Source of the DNA: Eledone cirrhosa
Lineage: Eukaryota
NCBI GenBank assembly: GCA_964016885.1
Contig: OZ024745.1
Coordinates: 115,630,001 to 115,694,000 of the forward strand
Direction of reading: 5' to 3'
Length of the DNA stretch: 64,000 nucleotides
Made by a program: the position numbers and the translations under genes. The number at the start of each line of letters is the position of its first letter. The first letter of the stretch is position 1. The notes under the pieces are model-generated. The model worked only from the letters and a program-made list of their open reading frames with translations, did no database searches and was not told the DNA's origin. This document shows positions 57,276-57,927 of this stretch, piece by piece.

Positions 57276-57370
57276 TATATATATATAGAATTGGTTACAC
57301 AACAGTTAGTTCACCATACCGAGAACAATTGTTTCACCTTAGCGGTTCCTATAACCATGCTCGGAATGGG

Positions 57371-57608
57371 CATGGTTATAGGAACATGGTTATAGGAACA
57401 TGGTTATAGGAACATGGTTATAGGAACATGGTTATAGGAACATGGTTATAGGAACATGGTTATAGGAGCATGGTTATAGGAACATGGTTATAGGAACATG
57501 GTTATAGGAACATGGTTATAGGAACATGGTTATAGGAACATGGTTATAGGAACATGGTTATAGGAACATGGTTATAGGAACATGGTTATAGGAACATGGT
57601 TATAGGAA
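57371..57608. repeat. 14-bp tandem array, 17 copies
   Basis: (CATGGTTATAGGAA)17 = 238 bp with one variant base. Confidence 0.97.
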
Positions 57609-57634
57609 CAGGCTTCCTGTTCCTATAACCATGT

Positions 57635-57684
57635 CCATTCCGAGCTGACGATCCGCTAAGGTGAAACAATTGTTCTCGGTATGG
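57635..57684 (+). ncRNA. Minimal type-I hammerhead ribozyme motif
   Basis: CCATTCCGAG-CTGACGA-TCC(GCTAA)GGT-GAAA-CAATTG-TT-CTCGGTATGG; stem I 9/10 bp, palindromic stem III, predicted cleavage after 57674; stem II weak. Confidence 0.7.
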
Positions 57685-57927
57685 TGAACTAACTGTTGTG
57701 TAACCACTTCTACCTAACTCGTCCCATGGACTGAGTTCTCCACCACTACGGATATTACCTTCCAGTGTTCCACCACTATATATATATATATATATGTATG
57801 TATATATATATTTTTATGTCTATTTATTTATATATATATATACATATATATACATATATATACATACGTACACAGACACACGCACTTTCACATACGCACA
57901 CATTCACACACACACACACACACACAT

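Follow-up and report, generated by a model that had tools for sequence, protein, structure and literature searches.

The locus described here raises the question of how a 14-nt segment came to stand 17 times in tandem at the turn between two inverted arms of a retroelement, one of which has lost its hammerhead core to an inverted copy of the same segment. It lies within a window of 64,000 nt, the whole stretch of DNA analyzed, from Eledone cirrhosa (contig OZ024745.1). At this locus, a Penelope-like element (PLE) of the Hydra clade has inserted into a (TA)n target in 5'-truncated, inverted form. Neither this kind of element nor its inverted layout is new; the array and the patch in the hammerhead called for an explanation.

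The insertion is framed by (TA)n tracts read from the sequence at 57276..57287 and 57777..57795, and the last TA of the left tract is common to the end of the arm, a like flank being present in most fold-backs of the family. The left arm (57286..57370, reverse strand), delimited by arm alignment and a mosaic parse, is an inverted piece of the pLTR that ends at the inner of two start sites, has no tail, and carries a destroyed hammerhead core. It is followed by the array (57371..57608, reverse strand), which was defined by repeat finding, unit alignment, and a genome search and consists of 17 full in-register units of a contiguous 14-nt segment of the family; 16 units are exact and unit 7 has a single A>G change at 57468. 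The repeat finder returned a period of 14 with 17.1 copies at 99%. At the turn (57609..57615), a blunt join connects the last 4 nt of the left arm with the right arm; in the element, the right arm begins 3 nt farther upstream. The right arm (57613..57778, forward strand) is the 3' end of the PLE, comprising the pLTR and tail, with 4 differences from the family majority in 158 nt. The 66-nt tail (57713..57778, forward strand) lies between the two start sites, is present on this arm only, and corresponds to the start of the element body in tandem copies.

The first-pass annotation had described 17 tandem copies, the replacement of 7 nt by 13 nt, and a tight turn, and this description holds nearly base for base. 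The claim that the unit is the innermost 14 bp needs correction, because four further arm bases (57609-57612) separate the array from the turn. The turn had been read as a 3-nt loop; CTT at 57613-57615 does close a perfect 19-bp stem (57594-57612 with 57616-57634), but the "loop" is family sequence, namely the 3 bases by which the right arm exceeds the left. Similarly, the inverted unit said to head the right arm is present at 57620 but is merely native family sequence, and the overwriting of the hammerhead core applies to the left arm, whereas the hammerhead of the right arm is intact.

The patch (57346..57358, forward strand), defined by the arm alignment and folding, is an inverted copy of the array unit. 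A search of the window allowing 0-1 mismatches found the inverted unit at 57346 and 57620 only, and an alignment of the two arms over 57286-57386 showed 2 substitutions in addition to the 7 core-complementary bases exchanged for these 13. The patch and its flanks form a perfect 16-bp hairpin with the first array unit (57345-57360 with 57370-57385, 9-nt loop, z of approximately -7.5); folds of whole arms were not more stable than shuffles. In the 3.0-Gb genome, the patch junction has one match, which is this locus, and all 14 of the 14 matches to a tandem dimer of the unit are also located here, which places the array outside the family consensus, in agreement with the earlier reading. The unit itself extends from the 5'-end hot spot described below and stops 1 nt short of the base of hammerhead stem I; a 2-nt direct repeat bounds it. 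The unit 7 variant is the same base as the next templated base, and the arm difference adjoining the unit extends a local hairpin either way, its T form having 17 exact matches. Both changes hint at template switching; alternatively, they may be a point mutation or an inherited allele.

The right arm contains a type I hammerhead motif (57635..57684, forward strand), recognized as a motif in the sequence with stem I forming in folds. Its parts are stem I (57635-57644 with 57675-57684), a core at 57645-57651, a short stem II, GAAA at 57663-57666, and a palindromic helix III, and cleavage is predicted after 57674. The layout comprises the CUGANGA and GAAA cores, an NUH site, stem I, and a short palindromic helix III, and lacks the G10.1-C11.1 pair. 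Since Rfam scans of the window and of the locus gave no hammerhead family match, the call was based on the motif itself and on its agreement in layout with motifs published for the Hydra clade: stem II is framed by U as in the Hydra rows of File S2 (available part of PMC8557442), and the layout also agrees with the part of PMC4209133 at hand. N7 (57649) is the one strongly variable core base, in 45 of 157 arms, the first core bases being fixed by the search pattern. Folding showed that stem I also forms in the cDNA strand. A second subfamily (loci L210, L172, L166, L169, L218, L223, and L238) has another loop II and, in stem I, another 5' strand, the pairing of which with the unchanged 3' strand is retained; this supports a conserved structure. 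At L111, L218, L216, and L166, one arm is without most or all of the hammerhead hairpin, as if a polymerase had jumped its base.

Regarding the element, the right arm gave 1097 first-look candidates in the genome, the 41 best full-length matches being 96-100% identical, and a 29-mer of the arm has at least 266 exact matches genome-wide; the copies of the family number in the hundreds. Longer copies yield a circularly permuted unit of 2543 bp, in which window position 57620 corresponds to unit position 2451, with one long ORF in the family majority; natural reading frames among the copies are 638 and 296 aa. The ORF, in which an RT is followed by a C-terminal GIY-YIG-type nuclease, carries RWR, SDKT, YRDD, CSCRKPEAC (a CxCX5C linker), CGLC (CxxC), and CPH (CxH), and has no CCHH. 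It had no match in the Pfam and PDB sequences searched; its 126 homologues at E<=1e-10 are unnamed. Insertions of the family show a (TA)n target, a pLTR, partial tandems, inverted truncated copies, and a tail on one end.

The available part of PMC8557442 gives as marks of the Hydra clade a unit of less than 3 kb with one ORF, RWK-like and DKT motifs, the CxCX5C linker, a C-terminal nuclease with CxxC and CxH, (TA)n targets, and a hammerhead with U framing stem II. The present family shares these marks, and on these sequence features it is classified as a Hydra-clade PLE, in keeping with the earlier view that the element was Penelope-like. Hydra-1_Obim, the nearest family given in the part of PMC8557442 consulted, agrees motif by motif over the N-terminal and RT segments in a comparison by eye; however, it is a different family, with a different hammerhead and 3' region. 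This agreement, together with the repeat landscape, is suggestive of an octopus-like host. The same text states tails of 30-40 bp for PLEs, against 66 nt here, and its accessible sections do not describe junction repeats or a 5'-end hot spot for Hydra-clade PLEs.

The family-wide sample was obtained by parsing 140 fetched loci against the unit, which gave 124 insertion clusters and, after the removal of 4 redundant rows, 120 insertions, among which a few duplicates may remain. The outer ends of arms fall on two fixed TA sites, either at 2543 or at the tail end 66 nt further, and single arms use both about equally (27 and 26). Among the 48 fold-backs with both ends typed, 46 have one end of each kind and 2 have two tails. 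The inverted layout and the tight turn are thus family traits. Subfamily alleles were shared between the arms of one insertion in 37 cases and discordant in 24, while 10.9 and 89.5, respectively, were expected if independent, and this sharing rejects, as a rule, the derivation of the two arms from unrelated source copies. A true hairpin fold-back, in which one cDNA snaps back, does not describe the present locus, the arms of which end at two different start sites and are bluntly joined. We infer that two cDNA ends were joined here, rather than a single strand folded back, because the ends in the family fit two priming events, one per cut strand. L002 and L020, in which each arm is tailed and the turn shows homology of 1-2 nt, are candidates for a true snap-back of one cDNA.

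A similar arrangement has been reported for the Anolis Poseidon PLE in vitro, in which both target strands are extended and two start sites flank the tail (PMC11167929). The two systems are alike in their two fixed ends with the tail between them, in the use of both target strands, and in the copying of an uncleaved hammerhead. They differ in that nearly all of the present fold-backs pair the sites one per arm, with a tendency of the two arms to stop at a common place, and in that the start sites here precede the ORF and terminate in a TA that matches the target.

The inner ends of the arms are also not spread evenly, with 25 of 183 arm 5' ends falling within 29 nt (unit 2427-2455), a density approximately sixfold that upstream. 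This sharp hot spot, marked at 2431-2455 for the tight turns described next, is just upstream of the hammerhead, and often gives perfect palindromic joins without a spacer. A genome-wide pattern search, which limited the gap to 30 nt and in which approximately 5 ends were miscalled through nearby substitutions, found 35 tight turns with both arms stopping at the hot spot, one pair of which may be a duplicate. Their ends are concentrated at 2447-2450, within 4 nt (46 of 70), and are 2 nt or less apart in 25 of the 35 pairs (permutation p=0.0004). Judging from these DNA ends, the hot spot is probably the RNA 5' end or the transcription start.

Junctions of the family frequently carry traces of repeated synthesis. 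Of 64 turns, 26 have 1-4 nt of microhomology, 8 are blunt, and 30 have inserts. Consistent with the expectation that re-copied units would also be found at the junctions of other family copies, each with units of its own, 6 of the 35 tight turns contain re-copied terminal pieces, namely the present locus, L167, L172, L210, L216, and L223, the last zig-zagging between strands. L216 is a near twin: on its left arm the unit occurs 1.4 times, again in this 14-nt register, and the hammerhead of that arm has given way to the terminal segment copied in inverted orientation. This points to the integration event as the origin of both the register and the patch. Other junction units were found at L005 (20 nt x3), L014 (10 nt x2), L047 (8 nt x4), and L089 (21 nt x2.6), and also at L057 and L063. 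In L005 the unit includes a base present in 2 of 132 arms, in L089 the repeated unit is a composite one that is absent from the plain RNA template, and the repeats of L047 flank a 5' end without a palindrome. Junctions well away from the hot spot (L014, L047, L057, and L063) show re-copying as well, and the repeats of L159 and L166 are in the interior of arms. Counted by eye, re-copying was present at 6 of 35 tight turns versus 3 of 56 other turns (Fisher p=0.08).

The position of such repeats was also examined genome-wide using six 10-11 nt segments from the 3' 180 bp of the element, a design in which arrays from other parts would be missed. A doubled 10-mer of the array unit was found at 9 places, 5 of them family-derived, and 4 of these 5 are at an arm 5' end, against an expectation of 22 of 151 arms (p=0.002). 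The proposal that re-copied units are enriched at junctions and that their identity tracks the truncation point is therefore borne out. In the sample of 120 insertions, 4 of 10 tandem duplications are at turns or 5' junctions, which make up 6% of the sequence (p=0.002). A doubled tail segment occurred at 3 places genome-wide, none in the family, and a doubled segment 3' of the hammerhead occurred at 14, 10 of which are in family copies; 8 of these 10 are genuine two-copy duplications, of which only 2 lie at turns, and this tells against a purely junctional view. Two-copy duplications, 11-23 nt long, are concentrated in a hot spot immediately 3' of stem I (L178-L190).

In alternative (synthesis-dependent) end joining, microhomology and loop-out and snap-back synthesis with 1-4 nt primers have been described (parts consulted of PMC5728401, PMC2895639, and PMC5068794), and snap-back junctions have been observed at R2 insertions (PMC11331408, in part). 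Family junctions show the hallmarks of the polymerase-theta type: close to the ends they contain microhomology as well as inserts templated in direct or inverted orientation. The likeness of the junction sequences to the accounts in these sections covers the 1-4 nt microhomology, direct re-copying, inverted snap-back patches, and several rounds within approximately 30 nt of the end; however, the inserts described in them are short and often imperfect, and 17 near-perfect 14-mers are far longer.

The number of copies needs separate consideration. Eleven other junction or near-junction repeats have 1.4-4.1 copies, and a constant per-round chance fitted to them gives a probability of 3e-7 of reaching 17, so that either a second process or an unusually processive register is needed. 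A long array was found in 1 of approximately 150 insertions examined. Two unrelated arrays elsewhere in the genome, one of 21 units of 21 nt (100%) and one of 36 units of 19 nt (94%), have neither a family match nor inverted flanks nor a hammerhead, and the window holds several arrays of its own. DNA slippage is the likelier source of most of the 17 copies because other junction repeats stay short and this genome readily makes long arrays. The array has 1 change in 238 nt and the arms have 5 in approximately 250 nt, and the array is not significantly younger (P=0.10-0.27). A general co-location of minisatellites with hammerhead fold-backs, which the first-pass annotation had put forward for testing, was not found: 607,726 bases, sampled with a bias towards family copies, contain 7 comparable arrays, of which the present one alone is in a fold-back. 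Long arrays on C5, C11, C12, C1, and others that emerged from the short-motif searches are unrelated to the PLE family. Within the window, a minisatellite at 29810-30994 (27 nt x 44) has no inverted flanks or family match, and another is present at 62540-63200 (21-25 nt x approximately 29). The units of the near-perfect arrays at L279:1757-2198 (21-nt) and L280:1597-2272 (19-nt) resemble an adjoining, other interspersed repeat and were possibly seeded likewise by a different element.

The best account, to which we assign about half of our confidence, combines two priming events on the RNA of the same element, slipping and template-switching junction synthesis that seeded the 14-nt repeat, and DNA slippage that brought it to 17 copies. 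Each cut target strand would have primed a cDNA, as suggested by arms that end, one each, at the two fixed TA sites 66 nt apart; with the hot spot as the RNA 5' end, the tight turn would represent two run-off ends joined without a hairpin. During second-strand synthesis of the left arm, the stem may have halted a poorly processive polymerase, which would then have slipped backwards and, on one occasion, snapped back onto its own product. As stem I also forms in the cDNA and has its foot 1 nt beyond the unit, a stall at the outer edge of the unit would be expected of a polymerase that copies the left cDNA, and a DNA template is needed at some step because the patch puts both polarities in one strand. 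The activity may have been host end joining of the polymerase-theta type or the RT acting on DNA. Most of the 17 copies would then have arisen through slippage on DNA, in the repair episode or later, aided by the inverted units on both sides. Several findings speak against this account: the inner edge of the unit coincides with the presumed RNA 5' end, as RT run-off predicts, the unit 7 variant fits fresh rounds on the original template over a later duplication, re-copying is commoner at tight turns than at others (at the p value given above), the array is not significantly younger than the arms, and the folds of whole arms do not surpass shuffles in stability.

An alternative is that the PLE RT, having run to the RNA 5' end, used the 2-nt repeat to realign 14 nt back and copied the segment again, approximately 16 times, before the arms were joined. 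The locus would then be a fossil of 16 rounds and the junction repeats of 1.4-3 copies would be fossils of shorter runs. This telomerase-like addition is unlikely in our judgment, albeit the foremost of the alternatives. The unit is contiguous in the element and its copies are near-identical; an A-B-A' layout can be recognized in the template, its A being 2 nt long and located at the modal arm end, with the boundary drawn from DNA ends, and this layout also fits L216, L167, L172, L169, and L166. In the sections of PMC12632851 available, 2-nt A segments are enough in some DRT10 systems, and the part of PMC8557442 at hand gives PLE RTs and telomerase RT a common ancestry. However, the same register gave 1.4 copies in L216, and the other repeats all stop at about 4 or fewer; L210 has no alignment repeat, L089 is composite, L166 runs on past the repeat, and the inverted patch is impossible from RNA alone. 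According to the same part of PMC8557442, Hydra RTs also lack the insertion-in-fingers domain tied to telomerase function, and the main text of the in vitro PLE study reports no repeat addition (PMC11167929). Next in rank, and also unlikely, is a division of labor in which the RT produced the seed only, realigning once or twice at the RNA 5' end, while the patch came from end joining and the remainder from replication slippage. The clustering of re-copied pieces at the hot spot, where they mostly stop at about 2 copies, and the abundance of long arrays in this genome are in its favor, but it requires two enzymes, whereas DNA-templated slipping covers the seed and patch together, and re-copying also occurs far from the hot spot at the four loci named above.

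A still less probable possibility is that all of these features are later mutations of a clean insertion, slippage at a 2-3 nt direct repeat having begun the array and hairpin-driven template switching in the palindrome having made the patch. Palindromes promote template switching. The eight two-copy duplications of the segment 3' of the hammerhead, only two of which are at turns, suit this possibility, as does the lower number of changes in the array than in the arms, a difference that is not significant; however, the preference for arm ends and for turns or 5' junctions in the two counts above (p=0.002 each), the L047 repeats without a palindrome, and the combination of both features in L216 argue against it. 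Misassembly is unlikely, and we consider it very improbable that the array or its copy number is an artefact, the 17-unit copy number being that given by the assembly. A read search of 9 runs, in which 3 contained 0.75-0.77 of the words, covered only other family copies on 57100-57400 and 57575-57660 (4 runs each, contigs or reduced-representation reads); depth over locus-specific words was zero at 57575-57610 in 4 of 4 runs, and run X4 had no contig across the patch. These runs are uninformative for the locus, being either contigs, from which rare variants are lost, or reduced-representation reads from other samples, with the above shares as their best. Moreover, both outer ends of the insertion are normal family ends, one unit differs from the others, and independent loci show the same register and patch.

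Comparisons with two further systems place the array in context. With telomerase and DRT10, as described in the available part of PMC12632851, it shares an A-B-A' template at a presumed 5' boundary and direct repeats of one segment; it differs in having no dedicated template RNA or upstream boundary stem-loop, in being rare rather than routine, in using several registers, and in being known from sequence. Non-LTR retrozymes and hammerhead satellites likewise form tandem repeats from a PLE pLTR (10.64898/2026.07.22.740005, part consulted), but each retrozyme unit holds a hammerhead, whereas the 14-nt unit has none and is not dispersed; the array, with a unit lacking the core, is not a non-LTR retrozyme.

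Minisatellites arising from other retroelements have already been described. For junction-seeded arrays in PLEs, no report was found in a literature search that reached few subscription papers. The new aspects are genomic evidence on unsolved steps of PLE insertion, with two start sites used one per target strand, a tendency of both arms to stop at one spot that is likely the RNA 5' end, and a junction finished by re-copying the last 10-25 bases, which may occasionally leave a seed that grows into a minisatellite. The family defines both template and register exactly, and so offers a way to ask whether repeat addition is possible for a telomerase-related RT. A positive answer that also held here would mean that minisatellites are written directly by a mobile relative of telomerase; a negative one would leave neat but ordinary end-joining scars with slippage.

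The surroundings of the insertion include the 3' end of an unrelated LINE (57030-57275, reverse strand), which we take to be RTE-like, with an open frame of 81 residues and a TA-rich tail. It stops exactly at the start of the PLE target, its continuation is not in the window, and the same LINE end flanks the PLE in L020/L021. Approximately 1.3 kb from the insertion is an exon of a trypsin-family serine protease with an IVSG start (59056-59199, forward strand; Pfam PF00089). Elsewhere in the genome, L065, L066, and L067 (C1, 211.7-212.9 Mb) are three copies of one complex insertion with the same flanks, reflecting either a segmental duplication or redundant assembly.
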